A stretch of DNA of 29,878 nucleotides from a virus (Duplodnaviria; Caudoviricetes). The position numbers and the translations under genes are program-made. Shown in pieces: positions 1 through 10,488 of the stretch. The number at the start of each line of letters is the position of its first letter. The first letter of the stretch is position 1. The notes below the pieces were generated by a model. It ran no database searches and was not told the DNA's origin. It saw only the letters and a list, made by a program, of their open reading frames with translations. The DNA is taken from positions 1 through 29,878 of the IMG/VR virus record IMGVR_UViG_3300032221_000051; one strand, given 5' to 3'.

Positions 1-513
1 AATGTTATTTAGTACTATCGGAATATCCATTGTAATCTCCATCTCAGGAATAAGATTACACGTAATAGTCCAGTCTGGTGTAAAGAACGGAAGTATCTGC
101 TCCATTATCTTGGTGCCGTCTTCTACGTTCTTAGCATATACGTATGCTTTAAATCCGATGTTATACGGAGTAGGCACGTATTGATATCTTAAGTTCTTCT
201 TACTGGCAACGTCTGCTACGACGACTCTGTTGGTCGTGTTTAGCTTGCGGTCGCCGTCATATCTAATCTGCCCCATCTCAAATGATATCATCGGAAGAGG
301 ATTAGTAGCAGAAGTCTTATCAAAAGCAGGATCTTGAAGTATACGAGCAAGCATCTTATCAACAGGCGCATATGTTACTGGAACCTTTAAAAGTTGAGTT
401 ACTTGATTCTCTTCATTGGTTCTTGTAATCTTCATGTTGTTAAGCAGCGTACCCATAAGGATAACGTACTTACGCATCAAACTAAAGTAGAATGGGTCTC
501 TATTAAATGCCAT
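1..513 (-). CDS. gp15: T4-like gp15 tail sheath stabiliser/tail terminator, 5' part (runs off the window)
   Basis: Not in the ORF track; translated by hand from ATG at 513: MAFNRDPFYFSLMRKYVILMGTLLNNMKITR...KVPVTYAP...LPMISFEMGQIRYDGDRK...YVPTPYNIGF...QILPFFTPDW...DIPIVLNN. These are gp15 motifs. It follows gp13-gp14 with a TAATG overlap at 511-515. Confidence 0.92.
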   Translation of the reverse strand, partial: MAFNRDPFYFSLMRKYVILMGTLLNNMKITRTNEENQVTQLLKVPVTYAPVDKMLARILQDPAFDKTSATNPLPMISFEMGQIRYDGDRKLNTTNRVVVADVASKKNLRYQYVPTPYNIGFKAYVYAKNVEDGTKIMEQILPFFTPDWTITCNLIPEMEITMDIPIVLNNI

Positions 514-1253
514 TATATCCCCGAATCTCCGAACGGATCGCTCTCTGAGAAGTCAATAAATTCCCATCCCTTAAACACCGTACCTTCAGAATTAATATCT
601 TGTTCATCGTCTGCGAAGTCTTTATCAACAGCATCAGAACCTTCAAGGATAAAGTAGTTACCTTCTTCATCTGTAATATCTTGAGGTGTTTCTGTCTGTA
701 TAGTCCAATCAAGAATATTAAGACTATTAAGATATTGAATATCGTCGATAGCAGGAATACCCGTATTGAATACTTCACCTGAGTATTCGAACATCTCGCA
801 TGTCATATCCCATGTCTGCAATGTGCCAAGCTGATAGAACATCTCATAGTTATTAACAAACCGTATCTGGAATACTCTGTTATTCAGTGGGAAGTATATG
901 ATGTCGCCTTCGTTAGGGCGAACCTGAGTTGTCACATCGCCGATCTCTTCTGAGAATCTACGACGTGCAACAGAGAATACAACCTGATTTCGTATTTCAA
1001 CGCCGAACTTAGATAGGAATTCGCCATCGCCAGAAAAACCATCGATAGACTTTATGTACATCTCTATAGGAATAGCCTGATCATATGATGACTGATCATC
1101 TGCTTCATATAGCTTATCGAAGTTGTTTATGGTTCTTGGAATGTATAGAACTTCCTGTCCATAGATCTTTACGCTCTCGATAATAAGATTTTCGAGAAGC
1201 AGCTGCTCTTGCGAGGACTGAAAGTTATTGAAAAAGAAGTTCGTGGTCGGCAT
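513..1253 (-). CDS. gp14: T4-like neck protein gp14
   Basis: EQLLLENLIIESVKIYGQEVLYIPR, SKFGVEIRNQVVFSVARRRF, RPNEGDIIYFPL and FYQLG are gp14 motifs; lies between gp13 and gp15. Confidence 0.93.
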   Translation of the reverse strand: MPTTNFFFNNFQSSQEQLLLENLIIESVKIYGQEVLYIPRTINNFDKLYEADDQSSYDQAIPIEMYIKSIDGFSGDGEFLSKFGVEIRNQVVFSVARRRFSEEIGDVTTQVRPNEGDIIYFPLNNRVFQIRFVNNYEMFYQLGTLQTWDMTCEMFEYSGEVFNTGIPAIDDIQYLNSLNILDWTIQTETPQDITDEEGNYFILEGSDAVDKDFADDEQDINSEGTVFKGWEFIDFSESDPFGDSGI

Positions 1254-1255
1254 GA

Positions 1256-1996
1256 CTATCCGATCATATCTGTGACAGGCAAGCTGTAAGTATAGATCAT
1301 TTCTTGCTCAAGCTTAGCGCGATCAGCAGAAGCTTCATCGTATATTCTTTGACCATTAAATACAAGACCACCTGGCATCTTCATACCATCAAACTTCTTA
1401 AGGTTCTGACCCCACTGTTGCTTAATCAAACACTCAGCATATAGTTGTAACCAGCGATCACCCCAAGCTTTATACCATACTTCTGGGTCGATGACCTCAT
1501 AAGCTTCTACAATAAGAAAATCTCCAACATTGACAAGATCCCAAGACATATCAAGAAACAGAATGTTCTGATGACGATTATATCTGATAGGCTGTTGCCC
1601 AATGAGAAGTTGCTCTAAGAACTGAATATGGCTAATAGCCATATAGTATGGTATCATAGAAACTGAAGTTAGTGTATACAGGTCGTTAAGAGCAATCTGA
1701 TACCGAATATTGAAAAGATTGTTTGCACCAATAACTTGGCCCAGAGGAAAGATACTTACTGCGCCGATAATATTGTCCGGAAGCTTGATGGCCCTGGCAT
1801 CGATGTTCTCTTGGGTAATCTGGTGCTTATAATACACTTTCTGAGAGCCATCGAAGTGATAATCCCAGTAATATCTCAGAGCCTCGTCAACACGATCATC
1901 TACCTGATCGTCATCCACATTGATCTCAATGACCGGCTTGCCTAGCTTTCTCAGGCAGTATTCTTTGAACTCTTCTCTGGTTGTAGGTACGGCCAT
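1256..1996 (-). CDS. gp13: T4-like neck protein gp13
   Basis: PTTREEFKEYCLRKLGKPVIEINVDDDQVDDRVDEAL...YHFDG, IKQQWGQNLKKFDGMKMPGGLVFNGQRIYDEA; AAGGAA SD upstream. Confidence 0.95.
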   Translation of the reverse strand: MAVPTTREEFKEYCLRKLGKPVIEINVDDDQVDDRVDEALRYYWDYHFDGSQKVYYKHQITQENIDARAIKLPDNIIGAVSIFPLGQVIGANNLFNIRYQIALNDLYTLTSVSMIPYYMAISHIQFLEQLLIGQQPIRYNRHQNILFLDMSWDLVNVGDFLIVEAYEVIDPEVWYKAWGDRWLQLYAECLIKQQWGQNLKKFDGMKMPGGLVFNGQRIYDEASADRAKLEQEMIYTYSLPVTDMIG

Positions 1997-2014
1997 GGAA
2001 TATTCCTTTTTGGA

Positions 2015-2022
2015 TATTTATA
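2015..2022 (-). promoter_or_regulatory. T4-type late promoter TATAAATA upstream of gp13
   Basis: Plus strand tatttata at 2015-2022 is TATAAATA on minus, the gp55-dependent late promoter consensus, in the intergenic gap about 18 nt upstream of the gp13 ATG. Confidence 0.8.
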
Positions 2023-2044
2023 CTATTCCACAGTCTCCATTTGA

Positions 2045-2662
2045 CTATACTCTGGCTGCAGTTAGAGCCACCTCATTACCCAGCTGGCCGCGAGGATACG
2101 TATTAAAAGCCAAGCTTATTCTGGTTTCTTTAGCTTCAACAACCTCAACTCGGTGCCTTAGACTAGACGGAAAAATGATTAACTCGTTGGTTCCTACAGG
2201 TAACTTCCAATTATCAGAGTTATACATATTGTACTCTGCTCTAGAGAAATCAAAAAGCATTATATCATTTTTAACAAAACAGATTTTATCTTTACTCTTA
2301 TCTGCATTTACGTAGAATACACCGGATAGAAAAGAGTTGCAGTGATAGTGCTCGTGATGGTACTCGCCAGGATCAGACCAATTTAACCATGACTGGGTTA
2401 GCTCTACCTTTAGGCTTGTATCACTTGGATTATGAATACTTATAAAGTATTCTTTGATAGATCTGTTTATAAACAAGGATAGATCTTTTAAAATAGGATT
2501 ATTTAGAATATACGTGTCTTTACTACTCTTATTTCCTCTGTTTGGTATCTGTTCAGCTGTCTTTAAAAAATTTAAAGTCTCTTCTGATAGCTTCTTTTCG
2601 TACTTAAAGAACATAACTGGAGTGGGAAATAAATGGTAAGTTTGAATATCAGGATTTTCCAT
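2045..2662 (-). CDS. 2OG-Fe(II) dioxygenase, TIGR02466-like family
   Basis: N-terminal LFPTPV; SWLN...YHHEHYHCNSFLSGVFYV (HxH metal ligands); LIIFPSSLRHRV (distal His); RISLAFN (2OG-binding Arg-x-Ser). GGAG SD lies in the P450 3' end, with a 14-nt overlap. Confidence 0.9.
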   Translation of the reverse strand: MENPDIQTYHLFPTPVMFFKYEKKLSEETLNFLKTAEQIPNRGNKSSKDTYILNNPILKDLSLFINRSIKEYFISIHNPSDTSLKVELTQSWLNWSDPGEYHHEHYHCNSFLSGVFYVNADKSKDKICFVKNDIMLFDFSRAEYNMYNSDNWKLPVGTNELIIFPSSLRHRVEVVEAKETRISLAFNTYPRGQLGNEVALTAARV

Positions 2663-3800
2663 AATCTCTCCGCATCATAATATTAGATATCATATCATCG
2701 TTGCCCGATGCAGTCATGATATATTTCAAATCAGAATTATTAGTTATTATCTCATACTTTCCTATCTTATCAAGCAAAATTTCTAGATAAGAACACAGTA
2801 TAGCCCTGGATACAGCAAGCGCAATGCACGCATGAACACCATGACCCCAGGCCAAAGAACCAGTAGTGTCTCTATATATATCAAACCTATCTGGGTTAGT
2901 AAACTTATTAGGGTCTCTATTCGCTGACTCCAAGCATGCAGCGACTCGATCTCCTGGCTTTAAATCGATACCATGCATAGTGATATCTTTTGTAACTGTT
3001 CTTGAAAATCTTCCAGTTGAAGCATGAAATCTAAGCGACTCATCGACTGCTTTTGGTATCAGTGATCTGTCGCTTAGTAATATATCTAATTGATTCTCTC
3101 TATATAGGTCAAGCGTTAGGAATTGCAGTGCTCCTATCATAGAGCTAGCACCTGAAATCATCGGCCCAACAATCAATGAGAACACGTCTAAGTTCTTTGG
3201 GTTATTGTTTATATAGTCATCATATATCCCAGGTCCAAGCGCAGGAACCTTTTGAGATATAGTTGAAATCAATATAGGGTAACTATTGTGCTGGCCCTTA
3301 ATCGAATCTTCTAGACGGGCTGATGGGCTTTTTCTCTGAGTATTAAGAACTATATTCTTAACTTGATCCTTATCTAATGGAAAATTAAGAAACTCAGCTA
3401 CCACCCAAGCACTTAGCTCTTCAGTTATATCTGATAAATCATACGTTGGCTTATCAGTAAAGTAATTATTTGCTTTCTCAGAAAACAATCCTGCTATTCT
3501 CTGTATATTATTCTTGTTGTAAGCATTTCTGACTATATTCTTATAATCATTATGGGTAGGATTATCGCTGGCACCAAGCGTATTGCCGAAGCGCTCAGGC
3601 TGCTCAACTATGAGATTGCCCTTAGCAGAAGAGAATATATCAGGATTATTAAGTATGAAGAATACATCTTCATATCTGGTCATAACATAAAGCTGATACT
3701 TTTCGCTATAATACGCAGAGCCTCTGTTTCTAAGCTCTGCGTACTTTTTAAACTTGCTTATCAGCCATTCGTTAGAATGCGGATCCCACATGCAGCTCAT
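2649..3800 (-). CDS. Cytochrome P450, bacterial soluble type
   Basis: N-terminal Y..LR...YVMTRYEDV..IL..PDIFSS; C-helix DNPTH; K-helix ExxR (VDESLRF); RTVTKDITMHGIDLKPGDRV; ANRDP..F..PDRFDI meander; heme loop LAWGHGVHACIA with the proximal Cys. Start is Met at 3800 or 3791. Confidence 0.95.
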   Translation of the reverse strand: MSCMWDPHSNEWLISKFKKYAELRNRGSAYYSEKYQLYVMTRYEDVFFILNNPDIFSSAKGNLIVEQPERFGNTLGASDNPTHNDYKNIVRNAYNKNNIQRIAGLFSEKANNYFTDKPTYDLSDITEELSAWVVAEFLNFPLDKDQVKNIVLNTQRKSPSARLEDSIKGQHNSYPILISTISQKVPALGPGIYDDYINNNPKNLDVFSLIVGPMISGASSMIGALQFLTLDLYRENQLDILLSDRSLIPKAVDESLRFHASTGRFSRTVTKDITMHGIDLKPGDRVAACLESANRDPNKFTNPDRFDIYRDTTGSLAWGHGVHACIALAVSRAILCSYLEILLDKIGKYEIITNNSDLKYIMTASGNDDMISNIMMRRDYGKS

Positions 3801-3815
3801 AATAAAAATTCTCTA

Positions 3816-4397
3816 TTACGCACCCATCATTGCTACAGAACCTACAGCGCCTTCAACGGCAATCTTAATTCTCCATATTATATCGTTCAGCAGCTTCTTA
3901 TCTTCTTCGCTTAGGCCTTCATTAGTACCATAGTTAAACGTCAGATGATCGATATTTCTTTTCTTAAAGAACTCTAAGAACTCATTAACATCTACGGTTG
4001 TGTTATTAACATCGCTCCATACGACGATCTTTCCGTCTTTTTCATGCATCTGCGCTTGAACGGCATGTTGAAACTCAAACAGAGTTTTAGCGTTTTGTTC
4101 TTCAGTTTCCGCTCGTATTTTCGATAGCTCAAGCTCTTCCGGCGTCTTATCTCTCCACGTATGAACATCAGTATAAGTCGGTGTTCCTAATTGTTTAGTT
4201 AGTTCTTCACTTAATTGATATTCTGTACTTAAAACAATCTGTGTATCACTTTCGTGAACATGGTTTCTTACAAATCTTGCAAACCCATCTGGTGGATTTT
4301 TAGGATCAAGACCCGGAAAATTTGCTGCCATGTTCCAATCAGCAAGAGGATGCTCAAAAGGTTTACCATCTTTAACTTGTATATAAAGTTCCATCAT
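3816..4397 (-). CDS. Hypothetical protein, possibly a tail-fibre-associated accessory or assembly factor
   Basis: 193-aa ORF with AAGGAG SD, packed between the Gly-rich adhesin and the P450. Function is inferred from position only. Confidence 0.7.
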   Translation of the reverse strand: MMELYIQVKDGKPFEHPLADWNMAANFPGLDPKNPPDGFARFVRNHVHESDTQIVLSTEYQLSEELTKQLGTPTYTDVHTWRDKTPEELELSKIRAETEEQNAKTLFEFQHAVQAQMHEKDGKIVVWSDVNNTTVDVNEFLEFFKKRNIDHLTFNYGTNEGLSEEDKKLLNDIIWRIKIAVEGAVGSVAMMGA

Positions 4398-4406
4398 AAA
4401 ACTCCT

Positions 4407-5105
4407 TTAGGTCCAAATAACAAACATATTTCCTGGTTGTCCTGGAGCTGCATTCTGTGGAGCCGCGCCGCCACCGCAACCAAATTGGAAATTAATAGTA
4501 GTACCAGGTATAGGTCTAACAGGATCAGTGTAATTAAAAGTGTAATTCATTTGGCCGCCAGCACCGCCAGCACCACCCCATGCGCCGCCTTGTTGTGGAG
4601 CACCACCTGCACCACCAGCTCCACCACCACCGGCAACTACTGAACCACCACCAGTTGAACTCGAACCGCCACCACCTGGCTGCACATTACCAGGAGCACT
4701 TCCAATACCACCAGGGCCGCCATCACCTTGAGCACTGAAGCCAGGGAATGTCATTACCGTAGCACCGCCTGGTGCACCATTATAACCATTATTACCGATG
4801 CCGTAGATGTTATGGTTGTCACCACCTCCACCTCCACCACCACCAGCATTCAGCGTAAAAGTTATTTGCGAATAGCCAGGCGTAAGAAATGTATAAGGCG
4901 TGCCACATCCATAGCCAGATGCAGGACTAAAGTTCGTATTGCCACCGAGTGACTTACCCCAGAAGTCAGAGTACCTGATCTGGCCTGAAGGAACAGTAGC
5001 TAAGTTTCTAGAATCAGTAGCATTGATGTCGAACTGCGCTATGCCGCCAGTTAGCAGCGTAATAATTTCAGACGCAGATATCTGCCCACTTAATGGTAAA
5101 ACCAT
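4407..5105 (-). CDS. Glycine-rich tail-fibre tip adhesin (gp38-like)
   Basis: N-terminal attachment-type motif LPLSGQISASEI...VPSGQIRYSDFWGKS, then multiple Gly-rich motifs (AGGGGGGGG, GGGGAGGAGG, GGAGGAGG). Directly downstream of an S74-chaperone fibre, matching the T2/S16 gp37-gp38 arrangement. Confidence 0.75.
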   Translation of the reverse strand: MVLPLSGQISASEIITLLTGGIAQFDINATDSRNLATVPSGQIRYSDFWGKSLGGNTNFSPASGYGCGTPYTFLTPGYSQITFTLNAGGGGGGGGDNHNIYGIGNNGYNGAPGGATVMTFPGFSAQGDGGPGGIGSAPGNVQPGGGGSSSTGGGSVVAGGGGAGGAGGAPQQGGAWGGAGGAGGQMNYTFNYTDPVRPIPGTTINFQFGCGGGAAPQNAAPGQPGNMFVIWT

Positions 5106-5107
5106 AA

Positions 5108-5956
5108 TTAACCCTCAACTTTGTCATGCAATTCATTGATAGCTTGAACTAATAAGGCAACGACGCGATCGTAGTGAAGTCCCTTGTATCCGTCTTCTCT
5201 CGTAGCAACGAGCTCAGGCATAACCTTCTCTACCTCGTTGGCAAGCAAGCCAGCTTCTCTCTTTCCTATTTCTTTACCACAAGCTTCAGAAGCAGCTTCG
5301 TTCCAAGTATACAGGTAGCCTTTAATCTTAGAAAGCTTCTCAAGAGCATTAGGAATAGGCTGAATGTTCTCTTTTAAGCGCTCATCAGAAGGCGAACCGT
5401 AGTAAGCCGTAATGTCGTTAGTTGCGATAATAGTTCCAGTAACACCAGATGCTGGAGTACCAACACCTAAGGAGTTGAACTGCGAATTCTGGTTAGTGCC
5501 AGTAAACACGTTAGCCGAATAAGCGTAGATAGCAATATCAGCAATGTTAGCGTATTGCGCTTGGTTCGCGAACAAAGAAAACGTTGCGTAGATGGCTGAG
5601 TTAACGTTTAGGTTAGAAGCAGCATAGCCATTCAAGAAGAGTGCGTTGTTTGCCTGACCAGCAAAGTCAGCGTAGTAAGCGTTTGTTGCATACACGGCAT
5701 TGGCTGCTAGACCAGCGTTTGCAGCGTATCCAGCATTTGCAGCGAAACCAGCAGTATCAGCGTAAACCGAATTTGTAATCTTACCGGTTATCAACGCAGA
5801 GAATGTTGAGAAGCCATTAACGCTAAGCTTCTGTGCCGGCGTTGCATCACCAAGACCCACGTTGCCTGCACTGGATATGTACAGGGTCGTACCGATCTGT
5901 GTTGTGTTGGTCTGACTTACTAGACCATTTTTTACCTGAAAAGCTTTATCTACCAT
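5108..5956 (-). CDS. Short distal tail-fibre protein with C-terminal intramolecular chaperone (peptidase S74)
   Basis: SDERLKENI autocleavage motif, then ALEKL..IKGY.Y.W, GLLANEVEKVMPELV and Y..VVALLVQAINEL; internal 6-aa AxY/FAxN repeats. Confidence 0.88.
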   Translation of the reverse strand: MVDKAFQVKNGLVSQTNTTQIGTTLYISSAGNVGLGDATPAQKLSVNGFSTFSALITGKITNSVYADTAGFAANAGYAANAGLAANAVYATNAYYADFAGQANNALFLNGYAASNLNVNSAIYATFSLFANQAQYANIADIAIYAYSANVFTGTNQNSQFNSLGVGTPASGVTGTIIATNDITAYYGSPSDERLKENIQPIPNALEKLSKIKGYLYTWNEAASEACGKEIGKREAGLLANEVEKVMPELVATREDGYKGLHYDRVVALLVQAINELHDKVEG

Positions 5957-5991
5957 GGTTCACTGTCCCCTATGGGTTGTTATTTTTTTAT

Positions 5992-5999
5992 TATTTATT
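5992..5999 (-). promoter_or_regulatory. Probable late promoter variant AATAAATA upstream of the fibre/adhesin/P450 cluster
   Basis: Plus strand tatttatt at 5992-5999 overlaps the stop of the 1496-aa gene, about 35 nt before the ATG at 5956. One mismatch to TATAAATA in an AT-rich gap. Confidence 0.5.
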
Positions 6000-8900
6000 A
6001 GGTTATTCCGTATCCACCAATAACGAACGTATTTGCACCAACACAAAGTATGGTAGCTAAACCATATTGAGCAAGCGTTCTACTTCCGGTATTAGCAGTT
6101 CCGGCAAGACGCATTGTTACGCCACCGTTCTGTGTAATCGTCTGGTTAGTAGCCGAATCGTTATAAACGTATACTACGTCACCAGCACTAAACACAGCAG
6201 CAGGAACATTAACACCGCCGGTCGTAATAGAGATGTGCTTACCAACATCCGCGGTAGTTAGCGAATAGTTTGTCGTCTGCGGGTTCTGAGGAATACCAAG
6301 ATAACCAACGTTCGATGCAGGTTTAGTTCCAACAAACGACGTATTGTTAGACGTCAGAGTAGCAACGTTTGAAGAAAGACCAGCGGTCGTCTGGTAGTTA
6401 GCTAAGTTGTTAGACAAGTTAGTTGTAGTAACGTAGTTAGCCAAGTTACCAGATAACTGAGCGTTAGATACAACATTAGCTGCAGATACAGTACCAACAA
6501 ACGCTGTATTGTTTGCTGTTACCGCTGCTGTTGCAGTACCCGTAAAGTTAGCAGCATATACCACATTGAACTGATTAGTTGTATTACCAATATCCTGAGT
6601 ACCAACGCCAGTAGCGTTCATATTACCGTTAACGGTTATATTATTAACGATGATATTCTGCCCGTTAGTGAACTGCGGCAATACGTTTGCTGTCCACTGG
6701 GCCGTACCGCCGTCGAAGGCAAATGTAACACCATTAGACGGAGCAAACAGGTTAGAAATAGCGCCATATAATCCTGAGAACGCGTTAGTATAAGCTGTCT
6801 GAGCGTAGTCAGCAGCGTACTGGATCGAGAGGTTGAACGCGTTGTTGGCATAAATGTTAGCCTGAGCGATAGCGTTTACGTACGCTTGATTACCAGCAGT
6901 CTGGGCATAAGCAGCAGATTGTGATTGCGAAGCATAGTTAGCAGTGGCAAGCTGCTGGTTGAGCGAGAACTGTGTAAGATAGTTAGCCAAATTGCCTTGC
7001 AACATTGCGTCTGATACAACGTTTGCAGCCAGCAACGTTCCGACATACTTAGCGCTATTAGCGGTTATCAGATACTGGTTAGCCAGGGTCTGCAACGCAT
7101 TAACAGTAGGCAACGTCATGCCATGTGATAATACCATAAGGTTTGAAGCTGCCTGGTATGTCATATTAAGAGCTGCGCCGCTTATATAGAAGCCAGCACC
7201 ATCGGCAGCAACTTCAGATACTGCACCATAAGCTATATCAAGAAGCTTATCTTTAATGCGTATCTCGTTAGTATTGATATACGCCAAGTTACCGCTTACA
7301 ATAAGGTCTCCGGCAACAGAAACATTACCAGTAAACGCAGCACCTGACAGAAGGGCAACGCCAGTAGAACTATTGACATATGCTTGTGATGCTACCCAAG
7401 CAAGAGCATTGCTGTAAGCAGAATTGGCAAGAATACCAGCTTGAGCAACCGCGTTGCTGTATGCTGTAGCAGATACTGCAATAGCATTATTATATGCTTG
7501 AGCCGCATAGGTCGTGGCCGTATTGGTTATACCAACAATAGCATTTGAGTAAGCGTTAGCAGCCAGCAAACTAGCTTGAGTGACAGCATTGCTATAAGCG
7601 TTGCCCGCGAGCAGGCCAGCTTGGTTAACTGCATTAGTATATGCAGCAGCAGACTGAAGTGTCGCAACACCAGCAGCATTAGTGTAGGCTGCAGTTGCAT
7701 TAGCTGTTACGTCACTGCCAAGAGCATAGCCAGAAGCAATAATACCATTAAGGTATAGAGCATTGTTAGCTGTGCCGACAATAGTCTGAGTAAACGTATG
7801 AGTGTTAGTCCAAGTGAACTGCGCAGCCGTATTAACCGAAGCGGCCGAAGGCGAAGTCCAGTAGATAGCAGTGCCGTTCGATGACAGAACGTCGCCTGGG
7901 TTACCAACAGTACCATTGCCTGTCAATGAACCAGTGACTGCTAAGTTCGAAACACTGATGCTTTGACCATTGGTAAAGCCGCCTGAAGCAGTGTTTGCCC
8001 AGTATACTTTAGCACCATCTGAAGTAAGTACTTGACCTGCGGTACCAACACCACCATTAGCAGTAACAGTATTAACAGTCAAGTCATTAACAGAAATGCT
8101 CTGGCCGTTAGTGAAGCTTGAAGAATGTGTTGTCCAATAAGTGTTAACGCCGTCTGAAGCCAGATATTGACCAGCAGTACCAACAGAACCATTTGAAGTA
8201 AAGCCACCGGTTAGAACAAATGCATTGACCGATATACTTTGGCCATTGACGAAACCGCCAGCACCAGTAGAAGACCAATAAACACTTGAACCATTAGAGG
8301 TTAGAACTTCGCCAGCTAAACCAAGAGCACCGTTGGCCGTAAAGTCACCAGTAACAGCGAACGCATTAACACTAATGCTCTGGCCGTTGACAAAACCACC
8401 GGATATGTTAGCACTGATACCGCCAGTAGCATTTGCAACAATGCTTACACCATCAACGATAACACCACCGAGAACAGTAGTATTTGCCACAGGAAGCGTA
8501 TAGAGAGCGTTAGCATAAGCAGCTGCAGCTTGAGCATCAACGTAACTTACATTAGCATACTCAACATTGCCTGAAGTCGTGATGCCACCAGTGCTATTAA
8601 CACTGAATGGAACAGCATCAAAGTAAATGGTATTAGCCGATACGTATAAGCTCTGCCATTTAGAAGTTGAGTTACCAAGAGAATGAGTATTGTCTGTTGC
8701 AGGAACAACGCTAGTAGCGACGCTCTGGAGGTTGATAGCTATACTATTAGCATAGGCCACGGCATTAGCGTAAGCCGTGGCAGCATCAGCAGCGGCAACA
8801 CCAGAAGCAAATGCTGTAGCATTAGTATACGCAGTGGCCGCATCAGAAGCTGATGTAACGGCAGCAGCCGCAACAGCATTGGCATAAGCCAGAGCAGCAT

Positions 8901-10488
8901 TGCCTGACCAAGCTATAGCATTAGTGTATGCAATCGCAGCGTCAGAAGCCGAGGTAATAGCAGCGGCAGCAACAGCATTAGCATATGCAGTACCGGCCTT
9001 AGTTGAGGCGTCAGTAGCAGCCGTAGCAACCGCATTAGAGTAAGCAGTCGCAGCATCAGAGGCCGAAGTAACTGCGGCAGCAGCAACAGCATTAGAATAA
9101 GCAGTGCCGGCTTTGGTTGAAGCATCGGTCGCAGCAGCAGCGATAGCATTAGAATAAGCCGTAGCAGCATCTGAAGCCGAAGTGATAGCAGCAGTAGCAA
9201 CAGCACTTGTGTATGCATTACTTGCTTTAGTTGTTGCATCGATGGATGCGGCAGCAACAGCATTAGCGTAAGCGTTGGCTGCCTTATTTGTAGCATCAAC
9301 CGCCGCAGCAGCAATAGCAGCTGACTGAGCGTTTGCAGCAATAAGAGTCGCTTGATTTACTGCATTAGTATAAGCGTTAGCGGCATAGAAGAATGCGATT
9401 CCATCAGCAGCAACTACAGCATTAGAATAAGCATTAGCTGCCTTATTAGTAGCATCCGAAGAAGCAACGGCAATAGCATTAGAATAGGCATTACCTACCT
9501 GGGCAACTGTTCCATAGTTAGCAAGGTTAGCCTGAAGCTGTGCATTTGATACAACGTTAACAGCGAATACGCCACCGACATGGACAACATCATTGGCAAC
9601 CAAACGAGCAACGTTATCTGCAAGATAAGCTTCTTGCTGATAGTTCTCAAGAATGGCATTCATCGCCGCTGTATTAGTATAGAGAACCAAATTAGCAGCA
9701 AGCTCGTTGGCATCTACAATAAGACTTGCAGGAACACCATCAACGAACAAGGCGTTGTTAGCGGTAAGACGAACGACGTTAGAAGCTAAACCAGAAAGAG
9801 AAGCGTAGAATGAAAGGTTAGCTTGAAGCTGAGCATTCGATACGACGTTAGTATTGTATACGCCACCAACATAGAGAGCATCGTTAGCAGTAAGACGAAC
9901 TACGTTCGATGACAGACCAGCAAGAGTAGCGTAATTAACCAAGTTGGCATTCAGAGCAGCATTAGAAACTACTTGAGATGAAGCCAAACCACCAATGAAG
10001 TTTGAGTTATTTGCAGTAAGGTTAAGAACATTAGCCGCTAACAAACCCGCCAATTGATAGTTGACAAGATTAGAAGACAGGTTAATGTTAGTAGGATAGT
10101 TAGCGAGGTTGCCCTGCAACTGAGCATTCGACACGACCAGGGGAGCAGCCAGACCGCCGATGTAGTTAGCAGAGTTAACAGTAAGAGGAGCAACGTTCGA
10201 AGCAACGCCTGTCAGCGTCAGATAGTTAGCCAAGTTAGCTTGGAGCTGAGCATTTGATACGACGTTAGAGGCACGAACAGAACCAACGAACGTTGTATTG
10301 TTTGCTGTAGCTTGAAGAACGTTAGCAGCTAAAGTATCATTTAGCTGTACAGTATAGCCACCCTGAATTGCGCCGTCCTGAACAACGAGCTCATGCGTCT
10401 CGTAGTTGACGACTACCTCGCCGTTTGCGCCGGTAAATGTCGCTATCTGAGCGGTATTACCTCTGCGGAACTGTACCTGAGTTGCCAT
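5998..10488 (-). CDS. Large repeat-rich tail fibre or virion filament with Mtd-like N-terminal domain
   Basis: N-terminus QVQFRRGNTAQIATFTGANGEVVVN....LVVQDG..QGG resembles the major tropism determinant N-terminal domain. Three internal repeat families; fibre motifs such as VPATDNTHSLGNSTSKWQSLY. Confidence 0.85.
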   Translation of the reverse strand: MATQVQFRRGNTAQIATFTGANGEVVVNYETHELVVQDGAIQGGYTVQLNDTLAANVLQATANNTTFVGSVRASNVVSNAQLQANLANYLTLTGVASNVAPLTVNSANYIGGLAAPLVVSNAQLQGNLANYPTNINLSSNLVNYQLAGLLAANVLNLTANNSNFIGGLASSQVVSNAALNANLVNYATLAGLSSNVVRLTANDALYVGGVYNTNVVSNAQLQANLSFYASLSGLASNVVRLTANNALFVDGVPASLIVDANELAANLVLYTNTAAMNAILENYQQEAYLADNVARLVANDVVHVGGVFAVNVVSNAQLQANLANYGTVAQVGNAYSNAIAVASSDATNKAANAYSNAVVAADGIAFFYAANAYTNAVNQATLIAANAQSAAIAAAAVDATNKAANAYANAVAAASIDATTKASNAYTSAVATAAITSASDAATAYSNAIAAAATDASTKAGTAYSNAVAAAAVTSASDAATAYSNAVATAATDASTKAGTAYANAVAAAAITSASDAAIAYTNAIAWSGNAALAYANAVAAAAVTSASDAATAYTNATAFASGVAAADAATAYANAVAYANSIAINLQSVATSVVPATDNTHSLGNSTSKWQSLYVSANTIYFDAVPFSVNSTGGITTSGNVEYANVSYVDAQAAAAYANALYTLPVANTTVLGGVIVDGVSIVANATGGISANISGGFVNGQSISVNAFAVTGDFTANGALGLAGEVLTSNGSSVYWSSTGAGGFVNGQSISVNAFVLTGGFTSNGSVGTAGQYLASDGVNTYWTTHSSSFTNGQSISVNDLTVNTVTANGGVGTAGQVLTSDGAKVYWANTASGGFTNGQSISVSNLAVTGSLTGNGTVGNPGDVLSSNGTAIYWTSPSAASVNTAAQFTWTNTHTFTQTIVGTANNALYLNGIIASGYALGSDVTANATAAYTNAAGVATLQSAAAYTNAVNQAGLLAGNAYSNAVTQASLLAANAYSNAIVGITNTATTYAAQAYNNAIAVSATAYSNAVAQAGILANSAYSNALAWVASQAYVNSSTGVALLSGAAFTGNVSVAGDLIVSGNLAYINTNEIRIKDKLLDIAYGAVSEVAADGAGFYISGAALNMTYQAASNLMVLSHGMTLPTVNALQTLANQYLITANSAKYVGTLLAANVVSDAMLQGNLANYLTQFSLNQQLATANYASQSQSAAYAQTAGNQAYVNAIAQANIYANNAFNLSIQYAADYAQTAYTNAFSGLYGAISNLFAPSNGVTFAFDGGTAQWTANVLPQFTNGQNIIVNNITVNGNMNATGVGTQDIGNTTNQFNVVYAANFTGTATAAVTANNTAFVGTVSAANVVSNAQLSGNLANYVTTTNLSNNLANYQTTAGLSSNVATLTSNNTSFVGTKPASNVGYLGIPQNPQTTNYSLTTADVGKHISITTGGVNVPAAVFSAGDVVYVYNDSATNQTITQNGGVTMRLAGTANTGSRTLAQYGLATILCVGANTFVIGGYGIT
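7850..8400 (-). repeat. Four ~46-aa repeats (F[VT]NGQSISV...NG..G..G..L.S.G...YW)
   Basis: Four copies of NGQSISV...YW in the translation of the large fibre. Confidence 0.85.
8740..9490 (-). repeat. Ala-rich 19/15-residue AY[ST]NA repeats (coiled-coil stalk)
   Basis: AYSNAIAAAATDASTKAGT and AYSNAVAAAAVTSASDAAT alternate with a 19-aa period. A second block of mostly 15-mers lies at about 7395-7690. Confidence 0.85.
9515..10335 (-). repeat. Six ~42-aa repeats (L.sNV..LtaN.a..vGg.....VVSNAQLqaNLanY) in the large fibre
   Basis: Visible in translation. Further copies occur near 6975-7070 and 6310-6525. Boundaries approximate. Confidence 0.85.

Follow-up and report, generated by a model that had tools for sequence, protein, structure and literature searches.

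Cytochrome P450s encoded by viruses have been described from giant viruses, Ranid herpesvirus 3 and Mycobacterium phage Adler, and in that account they come without redox partners of their own (PMC9405906). The characterised enzyme closest to the one studied here is P450-T2 (PDB entry 8FBC), a thermophilic member of the CYP203A subfamily from a hot-spring metagenome and a homologue of CYP203A1 of Rhodopseudomonas palustris; as reported, a surrogate reductase/ferredoxin pair can supply it with electrons, and l-mimosine and emodin are just putative substrates (PMC7780096; PMC11334723). Ser239 of P450-T2 aligns with Thr268 of BM3 (PMC11334723). Here we analyse a P450 gene at positions 2649-3800 of the virus record IMGVR_UViG_3300032221_000051, the entire 29,878 bases of which (the window) were examined and which CheckV rates as 18% complete. 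An initial annotation of this DNA had placed the known viral P450s mainly in giant viruses, with phage Adler as a rare phage case, in agreement with the published account (PMC9405906). Virus-encoded P450s are already a known kind of gene; what appears to be new is a phage-restricted family of them in T4-like phages, and our literature search turned up nothing published on this clade or on P450s of T4-like aquatic phages.

Results

The P450 gene and its predicted fold

The gene lies on the minus strand, as do all long open reading frames (ORFs) of the window, and forms an uninterrupted ORF of 383 codons, the plus-strand frame of 2649-3800 being riddled with stops. The initial annotation had the coordinates right but overlooked the strand. 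The following features were located in the gene and its product, P0001, residues being called invariant where they do not vary in our alignments A1 and A3:

2649-3800, minus strand: cytochrome P450 P0001, 383 amino acids, member of a phage-restricted clade (ORF, Pfam PF00067, AlphaFold2 model, Foldseek)
3141-3155, minus strand: I-helix oxygen-activation site SGASS, not (A/G)Gx(D/E)(T/S), with Ser219 at the acid position and Ser220 as the alcohol
3030-3041, minus strand: K-helix ExxR, reading ESLR, with E254 and R257 invariant
2883-2894, minus strand: meander PDRF (PERF-type), with F306 and R310 invariant
2820-2849, minus strand: heme-thiolate loop WGHGVHACIA, from W318 to the Ala after C325-I, read from the translation, with the Cys325 codon at 2826-2828

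The heme loop follows FxxGxxxCxG with its axial Cys, the variants being Trp or Phe at -7 and Ala for the final Gly, and its G319, H323 and C325 are invariant. Altogether, 72 columns are invariant among 23 sequences, every catalytic motif included. The Pfam p450 profile (PF00067), a check that had been proposed at the outset, matched P0001 with 47.1 bits against a curated cut-off of 22.8 (E 1.9e-12), the match being confined to residues 244-326, and in a six-frame search the P450 scored 46.6 bits with the same profile. Sequence comparison with the PDB retrieved 396 distinct P450 sequences at E<=0.001, headed by P450-T2 (8FBC, E 4.9e-42). An AlphaFold2 model of P0001, built on an alignment of 23 relatives, reached a predicted local distance difference test (pLDDT) score of 88.6 and a predicted template modelling (pTM) score of 0.90. 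When this model was compared with the PDB by Foldseek, at least 500 matches were obtained at E<=0.001 and all matches listed were P450s, with 8FBC again first (template modelling (TM) score 0.84) and CYP153A, CYP125, CYP109, CYP199A4 and CYP142 ranked after it. As judged from sequence and model, 2649-3800 encodes a genuine P450 with intact fold and motifs, and heme binding is predicted. An intact P450 with ESLR, PDRF and WGHGVHAC in an uninterrupted 383-residue ORF is what the initial annotation had described; all these motifs were located, and the fold and the Pfam match agree.

A P450 clade found so far in phages

We looked for relatives of P0001 by a word-seeded metagenome search, a HMMER pass over 1.84 billion representatives, an alignment-based scan of IMG/VR and pattern scans of genomes. 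The word-seeded search retrieved 271 relatives, and the best 120 of the 271 were all metagenomic, with 53-72% identity across 86-99% of the query; contigs of 158-360 kb carry several of them. The exhaustive HMMER pass returned 22,861 representatives at E<=1e-3, 6,470 at E<=1e-10 and 21 at E<=1e-30; full-length clade representatives were 40-52% identical with 264-437 bits and clade representatives overall 40-66% identical, after which there was a drop to 147.6 bits and 30% identity. The alignment-based scan of IMG/VR found relatives at 44-72% identity on 31 loci or contigs of T4-like phages, and it was required, since a single-protein pattern scan of IMG/VR gave seven pattern matches with no relative among them. 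Clade members are 40-72% identical to P0001, and the next P450s stand at about 30%. The nearest cluster in the ESM Atlas has 51 members, 79% of them from viruses. Five clade proteins lie on contigs of 345,173, 348,701 (the IMG/VR record), 349,206, 358,712 and 360,465 bases, lengths so similar that they hint at one group of jumbo phages represented by several complete genomes. In the alignment, the Cys loop and part of the B-region are missing from the clade representative P0137, which may reflect decay of this copy or a mistake in assembly or gene calling.

A clade-motif scan of 185,579 prokaryote species genomes (one per species) gave no relatives, although a pattern-seeded scan of this kind can miss members; a looser pattern scan of the same genomes gave 314, the best 80 of which were just 22-33% identical and mostly actinobacterial P450s. 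The closest named cellular proteins, and in full-length alignment the closest named bacterial proteins in the representative library, are P450s of Falsiroseomonas algicola and F. ponticola (WP_164692518.1 and WP_203076271.1). These are about 30% identical to P0001, with 125.7 bits against 264-437 for full-length clade members, and the I-helix acid, DPPxH and CxG are all retained in them. A quick IQ-TREE analysis separated 33 clade rows from 7 outgroups by a long branch with 100% support, which sets the clade apart from the Falsiroseomonas enzymes too. Among 50,697 GenBank phage records, a collection that may not include Adler, tblastn gave no P450 match at E<=1e-5 and chance matches alone at E<=10; blastn of positions 1-6000 against GenBank phages matched merely short gp13/gp14 stretches in 8 records, and PHROGs holds no family for the P450. 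In these sequence searches the clade is found so far in phages alone, 'phage-only' meaning that none was found elsewhere.

By the rule of CYP nomenclature, P450s at least 40% identical belong to one family and those at least 55% identical to one subfamily. No protein outside the clade reached 40%, the next being at 30% among the representatives and at no more than 33%, over the best segment, in cellular genomes (best 80 of 314). As far as this comparison with solved structures, representatives and cellular genomes reaches, the 40% rule supports a separate CYP family. This bears out the early suggestion of a possibly new family, both the closest structure (24-29%) and the nearest non-clade protein (30%) lying below 40%.

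The comparison with known enzymes points the same way. Like P450-T2, its best match among solved structures in both sequence and fold, P0001 looks like a bacterial P450 of the soluble class-I type; the two are similar in length (P450-T2 about 390 amino acids) and share Ser at the I-helix alcohol position. Unlike the phage clade with its SGASS and CIA, P450-T2 keeps the acid (AGVES) and CxG; its identity to P0001 is 24-25% by Foldseek and about 29% by HMMER alignment count, and it has not been described from a phage. Judged by P450-T2, membership of the CYP203 family or the CYP203A subfamily was rejected, identity to this member being 24-29% against the 40% and 55% of the rule. From sequence and model, P0001 is predicted to work like a soluble class-I bacterial P450, yet it shows family-level identity to no family of known structure, CYP203 included. 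With the published viral P450s it shares being virus-encoded and, in the five records searched, having no virus-encoded redox partner. It differs in that its clade sits in T4-like aquatic phages and is phage-restricted as far as found, and the P450s of giant viruses and Ranid herpesvirus 3 match the model with TM scores of just 0.5-0.72 and 10-15% identity. The best viral fold match is A0A6J5NCR8, a class-I-like 'CypX cytochrome P450' of 380 amino acids from an uncultured Caudovirales phage (BFVD; TM 0.84), which is 21% identical by Foldseek and, judged by Foldseek alone, appears to be another P450 lineage.

Three genomic settings in T4-like phages

Pfam and PHROGs matches mark the window as T4-like (gp15, gp14, gp13, S74-chaperone fibres, a baseplate wedge subunit, gp9/10-like, gp6, gp25 and gp5-like proteins). 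Around the P450 its genes are as follows:

1-513, minus strand: gp15-type tail sheath stabiliser, running off the window (PF16724, E 3.9e-48)
513-1253, minus strand: gp14-type neck protein (PF11649, E 2.6e-32)
1256-1996, minus strand: gp13-type head-tail adaptor of the neck (phrog_211, E 2.8e-40)
2045-2662, minus strand: 2-oxoglutarate (2OG)-Fe(II) oxygenase of 205 amino acids, a second cargo enzyme (PF13759, E 3.2e-21; phrog_81, E 2.4e-42)
3816-4397, minus strand: c7, a conserved phage protein of 193 amino acids that closes the fibre module and has no family name (relatives in 79 IMG/VR loci)
4407-5105, minus strand: c6, a glycine-rich protein of 232 amino acids (from its sequence; one relative weakly matches Gly_rich_2)
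5108-5956, minus strand: short fibre protein with a C-terminal S74 intramolecular chaperone domain (PF13884, E 5.7e-17; tail-fibre PHROGs)
5998-10488, minus strand: repeat-rich fibre protein of 1496 amino acids (named by position and repeats)

The c7 gene lies upstream of the P450 with a gap of 15 nucleotides, and the 2OG oxygenase gene lies downstream, its ATG overlapping the P450 stop by 14 nucleotides. The initial annotation had the P450 co-oriented and tightly packed among T4-like genes, which holds, and set it directly between tail-fibre genes and gp13, which does not: its direct neighbours are c7 and the 2OG oxygenase, neither a fibre gene nor gp13. Besides the strand, that annotation had overlooked these two neighbours, one an accessory and one an enzyme, the optional nature of the gene and its non-canonical I-helix. 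The minus strand has no terminator-like site in the stretch 2045-5956; the window as a whole holds 13 such sites against 9.0 expected, a count not above chance. A TATAAATA motif stands at 2015-2022 on the minus strand, just upstream of gp13, but its count in the window (3 against 3.57 expected) is not above chance, and neither is that of sigma-70-like sites (26 against 28.9 expected). No tRNAs were found in the window, and no RNA data set was listed as containing it.

The ORFs of the 31 loci and of the window were clustered, and the clusters were named with Pfam and PHROGs. The flanking genes of the P450 loci are T4-type (gp13-20, RNase H and segE), so the search for viral homologues and their neighbourhoods that had been proposed at the outset gave 31 IMG/VR loci with T4-type flanks, arranged mostly in three settings. 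In the first (context A; the window and eight loci, L002-4, L006-9 and L014), the order is glycine-rich gene, c7, P450 in the window and in 8/8 loci, and an S74-chaperone fibre gene stands ahead of this block in the window and in 7/8. The block precedes gp13-gp14-gp15 in the window and in L009 and follows gp14 and gp15 in L003, L004, L006 and L007 (gp13 is also visible in L003). The small terminase gene gp16 comes after it in L003, L006, L007 and L014, followed by gp17 and the sheath gene in L003, L007 and L014 and, further on in L003 and L007, by the tube and portal genes.

Context B comprises nine loci (L005, L010-L013, L015, L016, L025 and L028), with the P450 at about 8001-9150 in most and a fatty-acid desaturase, a fatty-acid hydroxylase, a Rieske protein, a TctC-type binding protein and unnamed genes as neighbours. 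This setting is an island of oxygen-dependent enzymes, in which unnamed genes for proteins of about 100, 200 and 400 amino acids recur on both sides of the P450. One context B record, G001, is by its sequence a jumbo T4-like phage, because it has 348,701 bases, is rated 100% complete and encodes a T4 portal (E 4.9e-105) and a terminase. Context C, seen in 11 loci, is a replication-type module made up of glutaredoxin, segE, a phrog_10499 protein, the P450, a phrog_11903 protein, T4 RNase H and DUF6433. Three other loci differ; in one of them (L026), two 2OG oxygenases of the window's type flank the P450. All hhalign comparisons, whether between neighbours from different contexts or between the P450 and neighbours of about 370-400 amino acids, gave probabilities of 1.9% or less, and the contexts thus showed no remote homology between their neighbours. 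In the quick tree, the members of A and C group together (98), those of C are monophyletic (99) and B branches basally, and context changes just three times along it, the lowest number possible. The pattern of tree and context, as far as sequences can tell, fits long residence in phage lineages with few relocations.

An optional cargo slot at the end of the fibre module

Scanning IMG/VR with an alignment of c7 (A2) gave 79 loci, in 67 of which the c7 ORF was called. The gene after c7 was the P450 in 6/67, all on contigs already in the P450 set, and another gene in 61/67. Thirty of the 48 distinct proteins encoded downstream of c7 were scanned with Pfam: nine matched 2OG-FeII_Oxy_5, the commonest occupant of the slot, four Gly_rich_2, three DUF7483, one AMP-binding and one a small terminase, with two weak beta-propeller matches, one weak cupin match and no family for nine. 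The loci whose neck genes are nearest to those of the window (L037 and L060; gp13 76%, gp14 66% and gp15 68% identical) have the order fibre, glycine-rich gene, c7, 67-residue ORF, gp13, gp14, gp15, with neither P450 nor 2OG oxygenase. An AMP-binding enzyme occupies the slot in L033 (gp13 65% identical), the 2OG oxygenase alone in L047, and in L081, L082 and L100 c7 is directly followed by gp16, which is the arrangement of L003 minus the P450.

Because L037 and L060 lack both enzymes, L047 has the 2OG oxygenase alone and other loci hold other genes, gene order indicates that neither enzyme gene belongs to the virion-building set: the P450 was inserted where the fibre module meets the next structural module, and so, separately, was the 2OG oxygenase. 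On the same evidence, the 2OG oxygenase is an independent cargo gene with no fixed P450 partner. Presence or absence in a conserved slot and purifying selection are both seen for the P450, as expected of cargo ('moron') genes. A classical auxiliary metabolic gene is host-derived, and here the pattern-seeded genome scans and the representatives gave no cellular relative above 33% identity.

The two genes upstream of the slot have features of their own. No Pfam or PHROG family matched c7; its conserved portion is the N-terminal 90-135 residues, and the family is widespread in phages, where it regularly closes tail-fibre modules before a highly variable slot gene. In the ESM Atlas c7 had no feature match, and its structural rows reached TM scores of at most 0.41 by query and 0.51 by the row's own length. 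A weak resemblance to tail-assembly-chaperone and DUF4376 clusters (TM below 0.5) suggests, as a lead only, that c7 might be a fibre assembly factor. The glycine-rich c6 contains runs such as eight consecutive Gly, with a GC content of 0.50 and a GC content at third codon positions (GC3) of 0.31; it precedes c7 in every P450-bearing context A locus and is found without a P450 too.

Integrity of the locus and selection on the P450

That the placement of the gene is an assembly artefact, a bacterial P450 fused to phage DNA, is so improbable that we set it aside, even though the record is a single metagenome contig and 18% complete. A Logan contig of 8,783 bases, assembled separately although perhaps from the same sample, spans 1353-7000 with 0 differences. 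Two contigs come from a second sample of the same study: one with 50 differences (94% identical) runs across 1955-2828 and bridges gp13, the 2OG oxygenase gene and the 3' end of the P450, and the other with 13 differences (98.7% identity to the P450) covers 2800-3798. L009, an independent contig, repeats the order c7, P450, gp13, gp14, gp15. With the Logan contigs across 1353-7000 and the junction of 2OG oxygenase and P450, and with the order in L009, chimerism at the junctions, a concern raised by the initial annotation, was rejected. Run X2 of the second sample, which holds a related strain, has no contig over about 3800-4600 (c7 and the start of the glycine-rich gene), which may be a diverged fibre-accessory region or a mere contig gap.

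The P450 might instead be a decaying or non-functional passenger lately acquired from a bacterium, and the restriction of the Pfam match to residues 244-326 and the missing Cys loop of P0137 could be taken in that sense. Between the window P450 and all 31 relatives, synonymous sites are saturated (proportion of synonymous differences, pS, 0.71-0.87), with a nonsynonymous proportion (pN) of 0.19-0.37. Over pairs with synonymous distance (dS) below 0.7, the ratio of nonsynonymous to synonymous rates (omega) is 0.04-0.26, for instance 0.088 for L004 and L006, 0.047 for L020 and L030 and 0.104 for L019 and L020. The P450 family is under purifying selection. This, the 72 invariant columns with every catalytic motif among them and a GC3 of 0.34, inside the range of 0.30-0.46 of the window's genes, speak against decay; so do the depth of the clade, the way context tracks phylogeny and the failure to find a cellular relative above 33% identity (best 80 of 314 in the genome scan; 1.84 billion representatives). 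We consider a decaying passenger very improbable. Near-identity to a chromosomal P450 with no phage homologues and relaxed selection, which had been named at the outset as the outcome that would speak against a phage enzyme, was not what we found: cellular identity is at most 33%, 31 phage loci carry relatives and omega is 0.04-0.26. The view of the gene as a genuine phage enzyme is upheld by the 31 IMG/VR contigs with T4-type genes, the complete record of 348,701 bp, purifying selection and the independent contigs.

The I-helix and the supply of electrons

In P450cam-type enzymes the acid of the I-helix helps to relay protons for O2 activation, and the acid-alcohol pair (A/G)Gx(D/E)(T/S) is typical of O2-activating P450s but not obligatory. 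P0001, with its SGASS, does not have this pair. The acid (D/E) is missing in 18/18 aligned clade sequences, whereas 10/11 of the nearest outgroup P450s retain Asp or Glu; G217 and Ser220 at the alcohol position are invariant. The sequence at and after the axial Cys is C-I-A in 16/18 clade sequences against CxG in 11/11 outgroups, and the clade reads DNPxH where the outgroups read DPPxH. Because the I-helix acid is absent clade-wide, proton delivery here must, on the alignments, differ (by way of water, a substrate group or another residue), or else the chemistry must be something other than standard monooxygenation.

Fer2, Flavodoxin_1 and Fer4_15 were absent from 5/5 phage records searched, the complete G001 included, under conditions in which control genomes gave matches. 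Each of these five records holds exactly one P450.

Discussion

We favour, with reasonable rather than strong confidence, a reading in which this phage-restricted P450 is optional cargo between the tail-fibre module and gp13, expressed late, and oxidises a small molecule of the host, drawing its electrons from a host ferredoxin or flavodoxin. The P450 would be transcribed late together with the fibre genes, at the end of their transcription unit, a prediction made because the genes share a strand, the upstream gap is 15 nucleotides, the downstream genes overlap by 14 and no terminator-like site lies between. Since no redox partner was found in the phage records searched, a host ferredoxin or flavodoxin would feed electrons to the enzyme. 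The substrate would probably be a small host molecule and not a protein, because the P450 recurs with unrelated neighbours, and the reaction may be monooxygenase chemistry with an altered route of proton delivery.

Several points weigh against this reading. As no neighbour is common to the three settings, gene context yields no pathway. The missing I-helix acid argues, at the level of sequence, against textbook O2 activation. The window is 18% of a genome, so this phage may encode a redox partner elsewhere. The closest characterised enzyme, P450-T2, is just 24-29% identical, and its own substrates are putative in the published description (PMC7780096). The term 'phage-only' leans on pattern-seeded scans able to miss members and on the predicted viral labels of IMG/VR, and the P450 has no close host homologue in the sequences compared, unlike classical auxiliary metabolic genes.

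Two other roles would draw on the same observations. The P450 could modify a virion component as part of tail-fibre morphogenesis, for example by cross-linking or hydroxylating the glycine-rich or fibre proteins. The constant order of glycine-rich gene, c7 and P450 in the window and in 8/8 context A loci, whether ahead of gp13 or between gp15 and gp16, and its tight, co-oriented packing with late genes would suit such a role. We nevertheless think it improbable: 20 other P450 loci have unrelated neighbours (nine in jumbo-type oxygenase islands and 11 in the replication module), the glycine-rich gene and c7 occur without any P450 in six loci, and the slot after c7 holds many other genes (as seen in 30 of 48 distinct proteins scanned). 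The main rival, somewhat better placed though still unlikely, is an enzyme that needs no redox partner and acts as a peroxygenase or as a rearranging or coupling P450, using H2O2 or a group borne by the substrate in place of NAD(P)H-driven O2 activation. P450s with altered I-helix motifs that perform such chemistry are found in CYP152, CYP74 and P450nor, and both the loss of the acid in 18/18 clade sequences, where 10/11 nearest outgroups keep it, and the lack of a ferredoxin or flavodoxin gene in 5/5 phage records, one complete, would fit. Set against this, Ser220 at the alcohol position is invariant, as in P450-T2, the host supplies ferredoxins anyway, and the outgroup P450 P0159 likewise lacks the acid; no peroxygenase-type Arg-Pro signature was noticed either, though no tool-based search was made for it. 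The use of host electrons for the oxidation of a small host molecule remains the reading we prefer.

A bolder proposal, which we regard as speculative and rather unlikely, is that T4-like aquatic phages, from myoviruses of about 170 kb to jumbo phages of 350 kb, have long kept a CYP family of their own that has lost the canonical acid and needs no redox partner from the phage, perhaps none at all. Late in infection it would oxidise an envelope lipid or a signalling metabolite of the host, either independently of a partner or assisted by the substrate. If true, this would be virus-specific P450 chemistry with no cellular counterpart.

The locus represents a whole, selectively maintained P450 family that is apparently phage-only, is present in at least three phage genome architectures and carries a clade-wide change at the oxygen-activation site. 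As such it offers a natural experiment on how a P450 delivers protons when the I-helix acid is missing. The slot at the end of the fibre module, in turn, marks a cargo site at which phages swap enzymes, among them P450s, 2OG oxygenases and adenylating enzymes, and the P450 found there is a tractable soluble enzyme for asking which oxidative chemistry phages bring to infected cells.

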